In this document: in pieces, positions 21,380 to 27,841 of the stretch | How the letters are laid out: every line of letters begins with the position of its first letter | How positions within the stretch are numbered: position 1 is the stretch's first letter | NCBI RefSeq assembly: GCF_963921235.1 | Contig: NC_086097.1 | Location: 84,756,001 to 84,820,000, forward strand | Reading direction: 5' to 3' | DNA length: 64,000 bases | Source of the DNA: Mobula hypostoma | Lineage: Eukaryota | The notes under the pieces: model-generated | Told to the model about the DNA's origin: nothing | Databases searched by the model: none | The model's input: the letters and a program-made list of their open reading frames with translations, nothing else | Program-made: the position numbers and the translations under genes

Positions 21380-22040
21380 AAACATGAGAGATTCTGTAGA
21401 TGCTGGAAATCCAAATCAACACAGACAAAATGCTGGAGGAACTCGGCAGGTCAGGCAGCATCTGTGGAAATGGATAAACCATCGGCGTTTCAGGCGGAGA
21501 CCCTTCTTCAGGACTGAAAAGGCAGGGGGAAGATGCTAGAATAAAAAGGTGGGGGAGGGTAAGAAGGATAGCTGGGAGGTGATAGGTGAAGCCAGGTGGG
21601 TTGGAAAGGTAAAGGGTTGGAGAAGGGAATTTTTAAATTTTACTAGATGGGGAAATTGATATTTATGCCATCAGGTTGGAGGGTACCCAGACGCAATATA
21701 AAATGTTGTTCCACCACCATCTTGGCATAAGAGGTGGCCATGGACTGACATGTTGGAATGGAAATGGGAATTAAAATGTTTGGCCACTGGGAAGTCCTGC
21801 TTGTGGTGGACGGTGCCGAGGAGCTCGCCAAAATGGTCACCGAGTTTACAGCGGGTCTCACCAATGTAGAGGAGGCTGCACTGGGAGCACCGGACACAAT
21901 GGACAACCCCAGCAGATTCTCAGGTAAATGCTTCCTCACCTGCACGGGCTGTTTGGACCCTGAATGGGGGTGAGGGAGGAGGTGAATGGGTAGGTGTAGC
22001 ACTTAGGCTGCTTGCAAGGATAGGTGCTGGGAGGGAGATA
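21380..22040 (-). mobile_element. Penelope-like element 3' part (GIY-YIG remnant + pseudo-LTR with hammerhead motif)
   Basis: Minus frame HCVRCSQCSLLYIGET...VAKHFNS; hammerhead-like cagtcCTGAAGAagggtctccgcctGAAACGCC at ~21483-21516. Confidence 0.8.
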
Positions 22041-22044
22041 AGTG

Positions 22045-22800
22045 TACCACCTGTGTCTCCTGCCTGATGGTAGTTGCAGGAGGATGGCATTACCCTGGTG
22101 GTGGGGACGTTGCCTTGAAGCAACACCTCAGCCGATACTCCCAATGGAGGAGAGAGATGTGCCAATGATGTATCGGGCTGAGTCAACTAGACTCTGCAGC
22201 TTCTTATAATTTTGCATTTCTGAATTGCTGTACCAGGTCATGATACAACCCATCAGTACATCTGCACTGGCTTAGCCTCCTAAGAAAGCAGAGGCATGGG
22301 TGTGGTTTCCTTGTGACTGCATCTATATGCCGGGCCCAGGACAGGTCATCTGACATGTTAACAGCCAGGAATGTAAAGCTGTTCACTCTCTCCACTGCTG
22401 ATCCACCAAAGTAGGCTGACACAAGTTCTCCCTTGTTCCTCTTCCCGAAATCATCAACCACTCTTTACTTTTACTGATGTTGAATGAAAATTTTTTATTG
22501 TGACCACCAAGTGTCCTATGTGGCTCCTTTAGGCTGACTTATTCTCTGTGATTCATCTAACAACAACGGTGTTGTCAGAGGATTTGCACATGGCATTGGA
22601 GCTTTGCTTAGCCACACAGTTGTGTGCATATAGGGTATTGATTGTCGGACAAAGCACCCGTCCTTGAGGTGCATCCCCTGTGTTAATGGTCAGTGAGGAG
22701 GAGATAGTATCAGTTCATGATTACTAGTGTTGTTCCTGACGAGGAAGTCTAGGATCCAGTTGTACAGAGAGAAGTAGAGCCCTGGGTCATGAAGACTGAC
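22045..22800 (-). mobile_element. Rex1/Babar-type LINE fragment
   Basis: ORF 22204..22461 (VERVNSFTFLAVNMSDDLSWARHID..FLRRL); GCTSRTGA resembles the RT GAPQG region. Confidence 0.7.
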
Positions 22801-23859
22801 TATCAGTTTGGAGCACTTTATGGTTAGTTTGTTAAGCGCAGCTTAGAATACCACTAAATCATTGGAGAAAGTTGCAAAACTGCACACTCCTCGGAGGAAC
22901 AAGGACTCACTGAGAGCACTCGGCATAATTTTGTTTTTGTATGTTGTACAAGTTGCTGGTGTCAGTTTCAAAGTAAAATGGTGGAACACAACATTTTTCA
23001 CCATAACAATTGAAAAATCTGAGCAAATACCTATCTCCTATCTCATATTAAGTTTGTCAAACAGGTAGACATTATTGATGATCCAACATTTTCCTCTCAT
23101 TTGTTTAAATAAAAGAACCAATTGCACTCATCAAAAGGAAATGCATGCTTATTACTAAGATAAACCTTGCATGTTATTTATTCCCTGATTTCCAGCTTAG
23201 GGGCTGTACAATAGAACCATTTTAATTTTTATCACACAAGTCCATAGGATTTTTCTTAAGGTCTGGGAATCATATTCCATTATCTATCTAATTATTGGCA
23301 CCAGAGATAATAAGTGAGTTTTAACATTTCTTTTTATGTTAACGACAATAGGAGTGTCAACTACATGAAAGCTTCATCATGGATATTTGGATACAAATGG
23401 CCAGCAAAGGAGTGATTTGACTTTGGTGTAGATCGCCAGTTGAGAATAGGCTTTTAACCAAGCAGGTAATAATGTAAAGGAAATGTTATTAATGTAAAAG
23501 AAAGAGGGAGTACAAAGATTTCTGCTCTCTGGCAGGTGCAACAGAAAACAATGCACTACGGTTGAAGACTATGATTTTGGAAATGATCTGTGATGTTCTG
23601 ACCCATTTTGTTTAGATCAAGCGAGCGCGCTCCCTGGAAAGTATGGCAAATGAAACAGAATCTACCTGTCTTTCTGTGGGTTGCTGTTGAACATAAACCA
23701 GGGATGAATGCAAAAAAGGTATATTCCTGTACTGTGCTTAATGTCACTTTATGTGCATGCAGTCAGTTAATGTATATAAGGTGACCTTACGTAGAGTGGA
23801 TTCCGGTTAATTGGGCAATTGGTTAGCCACTTATTTGGGGCAACTCTTATAGTACAAAT

Positions 23860-24411
23860 GTTGTTTGTCCATCATTGATGTCGATGAGGACCTCGACACC
23901 ATTATGATGGTGTCGAGACTAGCACGTGATTTGGATTTAAGTGAGGGAGAGTTGCGCAGCGTCAGCCTCACTCTCTCTTCCCAATTCCCATCTGGATCCA
24001 GTGGCAAGACAGAATCTAGACGGCTGGAGATGGAACTAGGTGCGGTGGATGACCAGGACATCTTCTGTGTCTTGTCCTGCTCTACACGTTCCACGACGCT
24101 TGCAGAGACCGCCTTCTTGACCGTTGGACCTTCCATTGGTCTTGTCCGCTCAATCCGCCGGAGTCTGTCTTCACATGCTGGGATAGACAACTCCCTATCT
24201 CACCGAGGGTCTGAGACCTGTCGGCTACTCTCACCTGGTTTAGCCGGCTTGTCAAAGCCGTTGCCCGGGGTGTGGCTGCTGTCGCATGCAAACAGCTACG
24301 GGGAGCCACAGGTGAGAGCTGAGTGCCAGGTGGGGACCAAAGGTGGACTAACCGCCCTGAAAAGGACGCGACATGTTCCCCACCAGAGGTGCTACCCCTC
24401 CCTGACACCCC
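23860..24411 (-). mobile_element. Full-length non-autonomous RTE-related retroelement (bipartite, SINE-like)
   Basis: TSD tat(a/g)gtacaaat at 23848-59 and 24412-23; 3' end catcgacatcaatgatggacaaacaac resembles the RTE 3' end catcggatttcgatggacaaccg. Confidence 0.8.
24228..24411 (-). ncRNA. HDV-like self-cleaving ribozyme with an extended L3
   Basis: P1 GGGGUGU (24411-05)/ACACCCC (24273-67); P2 CUCUCACCUG/CAGGUGAGAG; P3 GGC/GCC; L3 UCCCCGUA plus hairpin; GGGCAAC; P4 CGGCUU-ugac-AAGCCG; GCUAA with C at 24243. Confidence 0.85.
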
Positions 24412-26254
24412 TATGGTACAAATACTATAGCCGGGATTCCCTTCATTTATTTGGGATACTGTGTTGCTTAATTGGGGCAGGAGTCTGTTGTCAAACAATC
24501 TCTGACTAACATCAGATGTGTGCACTTGTGTGGCCTTCAGACACTACACCGAGCTTACAGCGAGCAGTTTTTAAAATAGCATCACTTGCATGTGATTGCG
24601 TTCAAAAGCAGTGATTTTTGCCACCGATAGTTGGTGGGAAATAAGCAGTAAGAAAATTTAGAACTATATTGCTCACTGTGCTTTCAAGCATTCGGGCTTG
24701 GAGATGTCAGAAACGGCCAGGAATTGAAATGAAACAATTTCACTTCTTCAGCAGGTTAGAAACTATGAAGGATTTGAAGGTTTTGAATCATCTTGAATAT
24801 TACAATGAAAATAAAGATTTGGAGGATGTAATCATCAATAGCATTGTATGAAGCAGTCCATTGCCTACACTAAGTGTCTGCACTGATTTTGTTCAATCAC
24901 AGTCAATGAAAAGAACACAGCAGCGTACAGGTACACTGGATGAATTCTACCGTTGATAACACTTAGGAACTAATACACAGTTTTATATTAACTGTAAAAG
25001 TTTTGATAGTGTTCTAATATGTTCTGTATTTCATTTAAACACTTAATTTGTTACTCTGTTGAATGGCAGTTTGTCATTTTTATACTTTTTTGACTGGTCC
25101 CATGAAACTTACAGGAGCAGCTGCTTAACTGGGCCAAAATATACTGGTCTTGATACGTCCCAATTAACTGGAATCCACTGTATTTATATTTATTGTGTTT
25201 TTTATCTGATTGTGTTCTTTTTTACTGCATCGTATCTGAGGTACAAGCATTTCGTTTTCCTTTACACTTGTGTACTGAACAGTAAAAGAGGATGATAAAG
25301 TTTTTCTTTCAGATGTATAAAGACTAACAGAGGGGTGAGAGTGGATTCTGGTCTGCTAGAAGGTGACACTGGAGAGACAAAGAAATGGTGGATGAACTTC
25401 AGTATTTTGCATCAGTCTTCACTGTGGAAGATGCTCGCAAGTATGCCAGAAATTTTAGAATGCCGGGGGGCAGGAGTAAGTGTAGGTGCTATTACGGAAG
25501 AGAAGGTGCCTAGGAAGCTGAAAAGTCTGAAGATAGATAAGTCACCTGGACCAGATGAACTGCACCCAGGATTCTGAAAGGTAGCTGAAGAGATTGTGGA
25601 GACATTAGTGATGGTCTTTCAAGAATCATTAGATTTGGGAAAGATTCCGGAGAACTGGAAAATTGCTAATTTTTACTATTTTACAATTGCTAAATTGCTA
25701 ATTGCTAATCTTTAAGAAGGGAGGGAGGGAGGGAGAAGAAAGGAAATTATAGGCCAGTAATTTGACTTGAGTGATTGGAAAGCTGTTAAAGTCCATTATT
25801 AAGGCTGAGGTCTCAGAGTCCTTGGAGGCACATGATAAAATAGGCCAAAGTCAGAATAGTTCCTTAAGGATCCTTGCCTGACAAATCTTTTAGAGTTCTT
25901 TGGGGGAACTATCACGCAGGACAGACAAAGGAGAGTCAATGGATGCTACTGACTTGGATTTTCAGAAGGCCTTTGACAAGGTGCCACACATGAGGCTGTT
26001 AGACAAGATAAGACCCCATGGTATTACAGGAAAGATACTAGCATGGATAGAAGATTGGGTGACTGGGAGGAGTGGGAATAAAAGGAGCCTTTTCTGGTTG
26101 GCTGCTGGTGGGTACTGGTGTTCCACAGGTGTTTGGACCGCTTCATTTCTCATTATATGTCAAAGATTTGGATGAAGGAATTGATGGCTTTGTGGCCAAG
26201 TTTGAGGATGATACGACGATAGGTGGAGGGACAGGTAGTGTTGAGGAAGCAGGG

Positions 26255-27841
26255 AGACAGATTGTCGACCGACCTCTTTTACAAGGCTACCGTTTCCCAC
26301 TGTTATCTTAACTATCAACCCCTCCCCCACCATTTCCCATCCCCTTGTCCCTCTCTCATGTTAACTCCTTGCCCACCCATCTCCTCCCTCTGGTGCTCCC
26401 CCTCCCCTTTTTTCTTTCTTCCATGGCCTTCTGACTCTTTCACCAATCAACTTCCCAGCTTTTTGCTTCATCCCTCCCCCTCCAAGTTTCACCTATCGCT
26501 TGGTGTTTCTCTCTCCCTTCCCCACAACTTTCAAATCTAATCCTCAGTTTTTTTTCCTCCAGTCTTGCCAAAAGGTTTTGGCCCGAAATGCTGCCTGGCC
26601 TGCTGAGTTCCTCCAGCATTTTGTGTGTGTTATCTTAACTGTATCTCTTCCCACCCTGTCTCCTGTAAAAATGGTATTTCCTTTTCTCAGTTCCTTTGTC
26701 TCCACTGCATCCGTTTCTACGATGCAGCTTTCCTTTCCAGGACATCAGAAATTTCCCGTTTCTTGAAAGAACAGGGATTCCCTTCTCCACCATTGATGCT
26801 GCCCTCAACCGTATCTCCATTTCCTGAACATTCGCGCTCACCCCATCTTCCCACCACTTTAACAGTGATAGAGTTCCTCTTGTCCTTACCTACCACCCCA
26901 GGAGCCTCTGCATTCAACACATCATTCTCTGCAACGTCCGCGATCTCCAAAGGGATCCACCAAACATATCTTTACCCCCCCCCCCCACTTCTGGCAGGGA
27001 TTGCTCGCTCTGTAATTTCCTTGTGCATTCGTCCCTCCCTATTAATCTCCCTCCAGGCACATTTCCCTGCAAGTGGCCAAAGTGGTACACTTGTCCGTTC
27101 ATCTGCTCCCTCACAGTCCCAAACAGTCCCTCCAGGTGAGGCAACACTTCAGCTGTGAATCTGCTGGGGTCTTCTATTGTGTCTGGTGCTCCCGATGTGG
27201 CCTCTTCTACACTGGTGAGACCTGTTGTAAAATGAGGGACCGTTCCATCAAGCACCTCTGCTATAACCACTAAGAGTGGATCTTCAGGGTGGCCAAACAT
27301 TTTAATTCTCATTCCCATTCCGGTTCGAACGTGTCAGTCTGTCACCTCCTCTTGTGCCAGAATGAGGCCACCTTCAGGGTGGAGGAGCAACCCCTTATAG
27401 ACCATCTGGGTAGCCTCCAATCTGATGGCATGAATATCGATTTCTCCTTCCAGTAAAAACAATTTTCCCTCCTCATTCCCATCTTCTTCTATTCCACACT
27501 CAGGCCACCTACCTCTTCTCACCTGTCTATCACCTCTCCCTGGGTTCCTTCCTCCCCTTTCTCCAATGGTCCACTCTCCTCTCCTATCAGATTCCTTCCT
27601 CTCCAGCCCTTTAGCTTTCCTACCAACCTGGCTTCAGCTATCTCCTTCTAGCTATCTTCTCCCCCCACCCCACCTTCTTATTCTGTCATCTTCCCCCTTC
27701 CTTTCCAGTCCTGAAGAAGGGTCTCAGTTTGAAACGTTGACTGTTTATTCACTTCATTGATGCTGCCTGACCTGCAGAATTCCTCCAGCATTTTGTATGT
27801 TTTCCTTTGGATTTCCAGCGTTTGCAGAATTTCTCATGTTT
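26255..27841 (+). mobile_element. Penelope-like element (RT C-terminus + GIY-YIG + pseudo-LTR) with a nested second pseudo-LTR at 26314-26627
   Basis: DRLSTDLFYKAT..YLNY / SSHPVSCKNGISFSQFL; GVFYCVWCSRCGLFYTGET (ORF 27073..27273); inner TSD tgttatcttaact at 26301-13 and 26628-40. Confidence 0.88.
27706..27743 (+). ncRNA. Minimal type I hammerhead motif (stem II weakened)
   Basis: cagtc-CTGAAGA-agggtctcagttt-GAAAC-GTT-gactg; stem I cagtc/gactg. Confidence 0.6.

Follow-up and report, generated by a model that had tools for sequence, protein, structure and literature searches.

A putative large HDV-like ribozyme with a hairpin in L3 at the head of a young, LINE-derived retrotransposon family in the ray Mobula hypostoma

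Introduction

The locus considered here raises a simple question, namely whether a repeat in the genome of the ray Mobula hypostoma begins where it does because a ribozyme has cut its RNA. The repeat is a 552-bp element on the minus strand, at 24411-23860, of a 64-kb stretch of contig NC_086097.1 (positions 84,756,001 to 84,820,000), which we call the window; coordinates below refer to the minus strand of the window, and the element's own family is called family A. A 12-nt target-site duplication bounds the element and its 5' copy directly adjoins G24411. A preliminary description had read the first part of the element as a ribozyme of the hepatitis delta virus (HDV) type, with an unusual hairpin inside loop L3, and had proposed that cleavage at G24411 created the exact 5' end of a non-autonomous, RTE-type element.

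HDV-like ribozymes are a known route to a defined RNA 5' end for promoter-less long interspersed nuclear elements (LINEs) such as R2 and RTE. The genomic HDV and CPEB3 ribozymes share a nested double pseudoknot, in which L3 reads U-C-C-N-N-G, helix P1.1 has two pairs and J4/2 has a C followed by N-R-A; their J1/2 is a few nucleotides long, L3 is 7-8 nt and the first P1 pair is a G.U wobble.

Our answer is that the window copy is a dead member, missing 9 nt at its 5' end, of a non-autonomous retrotransposon family that is young and present in high copy number. Sequence comparison makes it probable that a large HDV-like ribozyme heads the intact members and cuts 5' of the first G of their leader, so setting the RNA 5' end; the window copy has lost the strand on which this would depend.

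The 5' end of the family

Forty copies were scored from 4591 first-look candidates in the 3.48-Gb genome, and all 40 are 96-100% identical across the whole element. A 42-mer from the L3-hairpin core has 2704 genomic matches at up to two mismatches, against none for the reversed control. Among 29 other fetched copies, 18 carry a full 9-nt leader, GGGGT(G/A)TAT, ahead of GGGGTGTCAGG; five have only the first base of the leader lost or mutated and six are shorter. The exact 24-mer starting at G24411 occurs 1693 times in the genome and is preceded by the exact 9-nt leader in 842 cases, while a base other than T at -1, which is the state of the window copy, is found in only 50. Insertions are dispersed, with duplications of 8-13 bp, and where junctions were read by eye the duplication adjoins the first G of the leader in four copies (L003, L014, L023 and L029); several others have a few extra bases at the 5' junction, as is usual for retrotransposons without long terminal repeats.

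The family 5' end and the native P1 strand therefore lie in the leader GGGGTRTAT, 9 nt upstream of G24411, and since the 5' ends pile up there, the window copy, from which this strand (GGGGTRT plus AT) is absent, is a 5'-truncated member. The pile-up of ends anticipated by the preliminary description does exist, and falls on the first base of the P1 helix, as junctions in families A and C (the latter introduced below) and the genome-wide leader counts agree; its position is 9 nt away from the one expected, and G24411 can no longer stand as the exact family 5' end or cleavage position.

The base before G1 is T in 13 of the 18 full-leader copies of family A and in most copies of family C, and in four family A copies this T lies within the target-site duplication. 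A preference at the target could account for it, or the reverse transcriptase may add one untemplated base.

Conservation of the fold among related elements

In the model that we propose, the first ~194 nt of a full-length element would encode a large HDV-like self-cleaving ribozyme. A 5'-terminal P1 (GGGGURU/ACACCCC) would be followed by a 2-nt linker, a J1/2 of ~95 nt, a 10-bp P2 and a GGC/GCC P3, then by an L3 consisting of UCCCCGU and a 21-nt hairpin, a CC/GG P1.1, a 6-bp P4 and a J4/2, GCUAAAC, containing the catalytic C. Elements embedded in host or read-through transcripts would be released by a cut directly before G1 of the upstream heptamer, which in a full-length family A copy is the first G of GGGGUGUAU. 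Cleavage would set the exact 5' end of the RNA, to be copied into new insertions by a LINE reverse transcriptase that recognises a common 3' stem-loop and (AAC)n tail. The window copy would have lost its native P1 strand, and the fold first described for it would have borrowed an identical second heptamer that normally closes J1/2.

The coordinates of the parts in the window copy are collected in Table 1, and every motif in the preliminary description, together with the 12-nt duplication, was found where it had been placed. The motif alone is only modest evidence: a loose HDV descriptor of our own has one match in the window, at the ribozyme site, but also two matches, counting both strands, in 10 shuffled windows. 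The stronger evidence comes from relatives. Family B comprises seven copies of a ~4-kb ray LINE with a diverged module upstream, in which L3 reads UCCUCGU and has no insert; family C, at 78-81% identity to B, is likewise free of the insert, and its flanks diverge immediately before GGGGTAT. A scan of metagenome contigs with an alignment of protein relatives of this LINE provided 80 related LINE loci, three of which have a homologous module: L075 with a 19-nt hairpin insert in L3, L098 with a 21-nt insert, and L079, on a contig cut at its 5' end, without one. A further locus, L076, holds a related but decayed module in which no core can be made out clearly.

MAFFT alignments (A1 and A3) misplaced the L3 gap and shifted the 5' strands of P2 and P3 in families B and C by three columns, and for this reason an anchored segmentation and a covariance-model alignment were used instead. 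The segmentation placed 42 of 43 sequences, leaving out A_L027, which has a mutated linker (an earlier version left out two of 40 rows, C_L065 and C_L069). The same architecture is present throughout the 42 segmented sequences, and the exchanges between them preserve pairing. Between lineages, P1 has G-C or A-U at position 1, G-C or U-A at position 2 and G-C or A-U at position 6; P2 has C-G, U-A, G-C or A-U at position 8 and U-A or A-U at position 9; P3 has G-C or A-U at position 1; and P4 has several pair types at positions 2, 3 and 5. When six lineage representatives are compared with P1 included, 141 of 143 cells hold standard pairs and nine of 25 pairs have changed on both sides, whereas controls with slid partners give 38-56% pairing and at most one both-sided pair. 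The covariation sought by the preliminary description in P1, P2 and P4 is thus present in all three helices.

A covariance model of P2, P3 and P4, built only from the canonical-L3 cores of families B, C and L079, finds the window core with 61.3 bits (E 3.7e-13) and a 24-nt insert in L3. The same model picks up the cores of L098 and L075, and further cores upstream of the open reading frame (ORF) in L115, L111, L125, L108, L143, L117 and L074, each with a 7-nt L3 of the form UCCNNGN. In its 13 best matches, from at least 11 lineages and aligned by fitting to the model without P1, pairing is kept in 97.8% of cells and both partners have changed in 15 of 18 pairs; no shuffle out of 500 attains these values and slid controls give 31-50%. 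P1 partners for the additional LINE cores were found in only some of the 11 cores examined and are not used as evidence.

Against this background of compensated change, certain positions are invariant across lineages: the U, CC and G of L3, the GG after P1, and C-N-A-A in J4/2. These we take to be the positions that define the HDV active site. Every core found at E up to 0.03 carries the UCC..G motif in L3, and J4/2 is kept as GC(U/G/A/C)AA in families A, B and C and in L075, L098 and L079. P1.1 is C-G at both positions in every lineage consensus and, because its pairs never vary, has no support from covariation. Among variants of family contigs from four organisms, L3 positions 4-5 change from CC to AA, and none at a share of 20% or more is listed in the 3' strand of P1, P2, P3 or J4/2.

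These comparisons bear directly on the idea that a GC-rich repeat resembles the HDV fold by chance. The loose descriptor, at ~0.2 matches per shuffled window, and the weak z-scores of minimum free energy (MFE) structures lend that idea something, but it is contradicted by both-sided changes in 15 of 18 pairs over 13 sequences, equalled in none of 500 shuffles, and by the three P1 exchanges, so that we give it almost no credence. Covariation in relatives is strong evidence that the fold is more than chance, and the nested double pseudoknot originally described is borne out.

Catalysis or a non-catalytic structure

We infer catalysis, including that of the form with the L3 hairpin, and release from host transcripts from sequence comparison, and several observations weigh against this. 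Infernal found no HDV-type Rfam family at E up to 10 in window positions 22000-27000 or 10 related loci, a check that had been suggested at the outset; the only matches were weak ones to small nucleolar RNA, microRNA and c4 families. The ~95-nt J1/2 is a likely reason. P1 opens with G-C, or in family B and L098 with A-U, and not with a G.U wobble, and at P1 position 6 an A stands opposite C in 18 of the first 100 exact-leader copies listed and in nine of 18 sampled full-leader copies. The hairpin is located in a loop of the catalytic core. By nested MFE, a full-length copy does no better than shuffles (z -0.66); in its structure the J1/2 stem, P2 and P4 form while the leader stays unpaired, and the structure of the window copy has the same J1/2 stem, built with the heptamer previously assigned to P1. 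Among the 40 best matches to L075:78-1300 there is no ray LINE with a hairpin-type ribozyme. Finally, a transcription start site at G1 would likewise give uniform 5' ends.

The last point leads to an alternative in which the module is a non-catalytic structured 5' untranslated region (UTR), serving for instance in translation initiation, reverse transcriptase binding or RNA stability, while an internal promoter at G1 sets the 5' end. Both halves have some precedent besides the missing Rfam match, as Pr77 of L1Tc is reported to be an internal promoter as well as a ribozyme (PMC3383444) and a role in translation initiation has been proposed for HDV-like ribozymes (PMC6765202). Such a structure would not explain why precisely the residues of HDV catalysis are fixed (the U, CC and G of L3, the GG of P1.1, and C-N-A-A of J4/2) while the helices around them vary by compensation, why P1 always begins at the first base of the element, or why a non-coding derivative with no ORF to translate keeps the module. 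We consider this alternative quite improbable, and a self-cleaving ribozyme remains our preferred reading.

The second heptamer and the J1/2 domain

The P1 5' strand in the preliminary description was the GGGGTGT heptamer at the start of the window copy, and 86 nt that separate it from P2 (24404-24319) went unmentioned. When family A is aligned with L075, L098, B and C, covariation with the P1 3' strand is seen for the first heptamer of family A and not for this second one. The second falls at the beginning of a long stem-loop filling J1/2, for which RNAalifold, applied to five lineages, predicts 28 pairs, and 12 of these show compensatory change; G1-G4 of the heptamer pair with the 3' end of this domain. 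Natively, then, the heptamer is the base of a conserved ~95-nt J1/2 domain rather than part of P1. The presence of two identical heptamers is peculiar to family A, L075 having GTGGTGT and GGGTATT at these places. Large J1/2 regions have precedents: in mosquito Agam-2, base-paired J1/2 domains together with an extended P2 are reported to accelerate cleavage (PMC4908430), and in R2 of the silkmoth the J1/2 loops are reported to measure 216-498 nt (PMC3774820).

It is nevertheless conceivable that the second heptamer (24411-24405) is the working P1 strand and that the RNA of the window copy was cleaved at G24411, for instance because P1 paired in an alternative way in a source transcript that had both heptamers. 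The target-site duplication adjoins G24411 exactly, and the second heptamer, identical in family A to the G-type first heptamer, can pair with ACACCCC. The other truncated copies among the 29 end, by eye, at about -1 to -5 and none at 0; an end exactly at 0 is thus not simply the commonest truncation point, as no other sampled copy ends there. The wider family speaks otherwise. At most 50 of the 1693 copies (3%) can start at G24411, and in 20 of them the base at -1 is C, as a T>C change would produce. In L075, L098, B and C the P1 3' strand has no complement at the aligned positions, which pair within J1/2 instead. Use of the second heptamer as P1 would also leave no linker before the J1/2 stem, and a zero spacer is reported to abolish the activity of Agam-2-1 (Webb et al., PMC4908430). 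A scatter of 5' ends across these first 9 nt agrees with ordinary truncation or with joining at microhomologies. Cleavage at G24411 is accordingly unlikely in our judgement, and we retain cleavage at the first G of the leader as the preferred reading.

A hairpin inside L3

The hairpin noticed in L3 is confirmed, as a 21-nt insert, and recurs in the LINEs L075 and L098. It is placed between the seventh base of L3 and the P3 3' strand, with the 7-nt motif intact on its 5' side. In family A the stem GCUGU/ACAGC encloses the loop UUGCAUGCG; L075 has GCUG/CAGC around UAACAUGUG, and L098 has GCUGU/ACGGC, with one U.G pair, around UUCUGCAUG. The stem is therefore kept across lineages while the loops drift. 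With the insert, L3 measures 28 nt in the window copy, family A and L098 and 26 nt in L075, beyond the 7-8 nt usual for HDV-like ribozymes; without it, L3 is 7 nt in B, C, L079 and seven further LINE cores. To our knowledge, existing searches and models treat L3 as length-invariant.

The two hairpin-bearing LINEs have intact ORFs of ~1100 aa and are 54% identical in protein, while L079 is 66% identical to L075 and yet has no insert, from which it follows that the hairpin is old and patchy in its distribution. It sits on elements that look, from their sequences, recently active. On balance we lean towards the hairpin on the 3' side of L3 marking an active, conserved structural subclass, in which the P3/L3 loop would become a small three-way junction; LINEs at 54% identity keep it, it heads at least 2700 ray copies, and current descriptors and Rfam models, which assume a 7-8-nt L3 and a short J1/2, would miss it. 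Within the limited literature covered, a search for insertions in L3 of HDV-like ribozymes found no description of one, and searches concerning HDV-like ribozymes in short interspersed or other non-autonomous elements and in cartilaginous fishes likewise left the hairpin form undescribed.

Were this form active, L3 could hold a whole helix, and the delta-fold core would tolerate or use an extra helix beside its metal-binding loop; the search space for delta-type ribozymes would widen and a natural structural test case would be available. It would also mean that an internally deleted LINE with a ribozyme at its head is able to multiply to thousands of copies in the genome of a vertebrate. A covariance model would be ready to hand, along with natural variants with or without the hairpin, with G-C, A-U or A.C in P1, and with two competing heptamers. 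Were it inactive, the family would show that such elements spread without cleavage.

Derivation from a LINE

Element positions 6-508 match the 5' UTR of L075 (L075:92-590, E 9e-103) and positions 220-504 match the 5' UTR of the ray LINE (E 2e-52). The ray LINE is ~4 kb long, has Exo_endo_phos and RVT_1 domains in Pfam and ends in GGACGAACAAC(AAC)n; the last ~14 nt of the element match this tail, a short match, and the short stem-loop preceding it is similar. Since the 5' UTR and tail both match and there is no coding capacity, the element is a derivative made of a LINE 5' UTR and 3' tail, like the short internally deleted elements (SIDEs) described for R2. Its makeup is ~510 nt of 5' UTR, of which ~310 nt lie beyond the ribozyme, and ~45 nt of 3' tail. 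The non-autonomous element of the preliminary description is thereby traced to a LINE with an (AAC)n tail and a single ORF for apurinic/apyrimidinic endonuclease and reverse transcriptase.

The related ~4-kb contigs each hold one ORF of ~1100 aa, and the parent has a single endonuclease and reverse transcriptase ORF, no ORF1, a length of ~3-4 kb and a short 3' UTR ending in a simple repeat. This fits RTE architecture; the parent is RTE-like by architecture alone, the label being taken from the preliminary description, and database names of LINE relatives were uninformative for clade assignment. Because no hairpin-type ray LINE appears among the 40 best matches mentioned above, the resident ray LINE, whose tail is related, is the likely mobiliser. 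An abundant ~5.8-kb LINE with a 1264-aa ORF (L031-L033) was ruled out as the partner, having no similarity to the element. It is young, with an intact ORF and three fetched copies 98% identical (one at G000:C1:82501300-82511200), and it tops the RVT_1 search, which gave 332530 first-look candidates in all.

Several features of the LINE 5' ends were noted in passing. Many full-length ray LINE copies (L050, L044, L042 and others; L052:340-352) start at ...ACTAG|GTGATCATCC, ~24 nt 3' of the ribozyme, with differing GC-rich, exon-like sequence upstream; this start looks like a splice acceptor, as if host first exons had been spliced onto the LINE and the ribozyme removed. In five dispersed family B copies (L046, L047, L048, L052 and L053), TCT replaces the first three P1 bases, and upstream of them (e.g., L052:1-154) is a tandem array of variable length with a C-rich unit of ~50 nt (...CCTCCTGTTCAAACCCCTCCCTC...CTCTGTAA). 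L054 and L055 have an intact P1 strand and stop precisely at P1. For the array, a promoter of the monomer type is one possibility, and a read-through 5' extension of copies unable to cleave is another. Public metagenome assemblies contain many ~4-kb contigs (among L073-L152) on which an intact RTE-like LINE has an HDV-like core at its 5' end; these contigs presumably stem from animal DNA present in the environmental samples and offer a ready comparative set for LINE 5' UTR structures.

Relation to known ribozymes and elements

The ray ribozyme belongs to a known kind and does not amount to a new class; what is new is its structural form, with a hairpin in L3, together with its host and its setting. 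Compared with HDV and CPEB3, it has a J1/2 of ~95 nt, an L3 of 28 nt and a G-C first P1 pair.

One close likeness is to the RTE ribozymes exemplified by drz-Agam-2, for which a position at the extreme 5' end of a single-ORF LINE, a large base-paired J1/2 (P1.2) with short linkers, cleavage expected at the first base of P1 and an extended P2 (12 bp, against 10 bp in the ray element) are reported (PMC4908430). Ribozyme cleavage at the 5' junction has also been reported for RTE (PMC3774820, citing Ruminski 2011). The ray elements and their relatives differ from Agam-2 in the 19-21-nt L3 hairpin of three lineages, a first P1 pair that is G-C or A-U, and a cartilaginous-fish host. They differ too in that no HDV-type Rfam model, those for Agam included, matches them.

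In their composition the elements resemble the R2 SIDEs of Drosophila (Eickbush and Eickbush 2012, PMC3414825), described as joining the 5' ribozyme of a LINE to its 3' end, as being propagated by the reverse transcriptase of the parent, and as showing the 5'-junction variation typical of target-primed reverse transcription. Unlike the R2 SIDEs as described there, which are rare and specific to a site in ribosomal DNA, the ray elements have an RTE-like parent, are dispersed with 8-13-bp duplications, exist in thousands of copies and retain ~310 nt of 5' UTR beyond the ribozyme. In Trypanosoma cruzi, L1Tc and NARTc, a LINE and its non-autonomous partner, are reported to have an HDV-like ribozyme in common at the RNA 5' end, Pr77-L1TcRz, a minimal ribozyme of 77 nt that doubles as an internal promoter (PMC3185411, PMC3383444); the ray ribozyme is ~194 nt long and has a peripheral domain.

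Features of the window copy

Table 1. Parts of the ribozyme fold and of the element in the window copy (RNA or DNA letters as given).
Feature	Position	Strand	Remarks
Target-site duplication, 5' copy, ATTTGTACCATA	24423-24412	-	11 of 12 positions identical to 23859-23848
GGGGTGT heptamer, P1 5' strand of the preliminary description	24411-24405	-	second of two heptamers in the family; base of the J1/2 (P1.2-like) domain
Structured J1/2 peripheral domain, long stem-loop	24319..24411	-	RNAalifold, five lineages; nested MFE forms the same stem
P2 5' strand, CTCTCACCTG (RNA CUCUCACCUG)	24318-24309	-	9 of 10 P2 pairs with both-sided changes, 13 sequences
P3 5' strand, GGC	24307-24305	-	exchanges GC/AU and GC/CG in relatives
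L3 core, UCCCCGU (TCCCCGT in DNA; motif UCCNNGN)	24304-24298	-	CC pairs with GG 24266-24265, forming P1.1
21-nt L3 insert, AGCTGT-TTGCATGCG-ACAGCA	24297-24277	-	stem GCUGU/ACAGC, 9-nt loop; 3' side of L3
P3 3' strand, GCC	24276-24274	-	pairs with 24307-24305; covariation
P1 3' strand, ACACCCC	24273-24267	-	covaries with the 5'-terminal heptamer at P1 positions 1, 2 and 6
P1.1 GG and J1/4, GGGCAAC	24266-24260	-	last C, 24260, doubles as first base of P4
P4 stem-loop, CGGCUU-UGAC-AAGCCG, 6 bp	24260-24245	-	both-sided changes in 4 of 5 P4 pairs
J4/2, GCUAAAC (GCTAAAC in DNA)	24244-24238	-	C of the catalytic position is 24243
P2 3' strand, CAGGTGAGAG (RNA CAGGUGAGAG)	24237-24228	-	pairs with 24318-24309; covariation
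Element body	23905..24227	-	homologous to the 5' UTR of related LINEs; boundary at ~23905 approximate
3' tail, short stem-loop and GGAC(A/G)AACAAC	23860..23904	-	(AAC)n follows in other copies; last ~14 nt match the ray LINE tail
Target-site duplication, 3' copy, ATTTGTACTATA	23859-23848	-	matches the copy at 24423-24412

A reading frame of 122 aa (window 23831-24199, minus strand) is open over the entire non-ribozyme part of the element and beyond its 3' end; a Pfam search with it returned no matches. A partial copy at L013, followed as a lead, only reached an older, unrelated repeat (L013:3050-3552, minus strand, and L035-L039), which has 8817 first-look candidates at ~85% identity; its end coincides exactly with the start of a 5'-truncated copy of the element that covers positions 345-551 at 88% identity.

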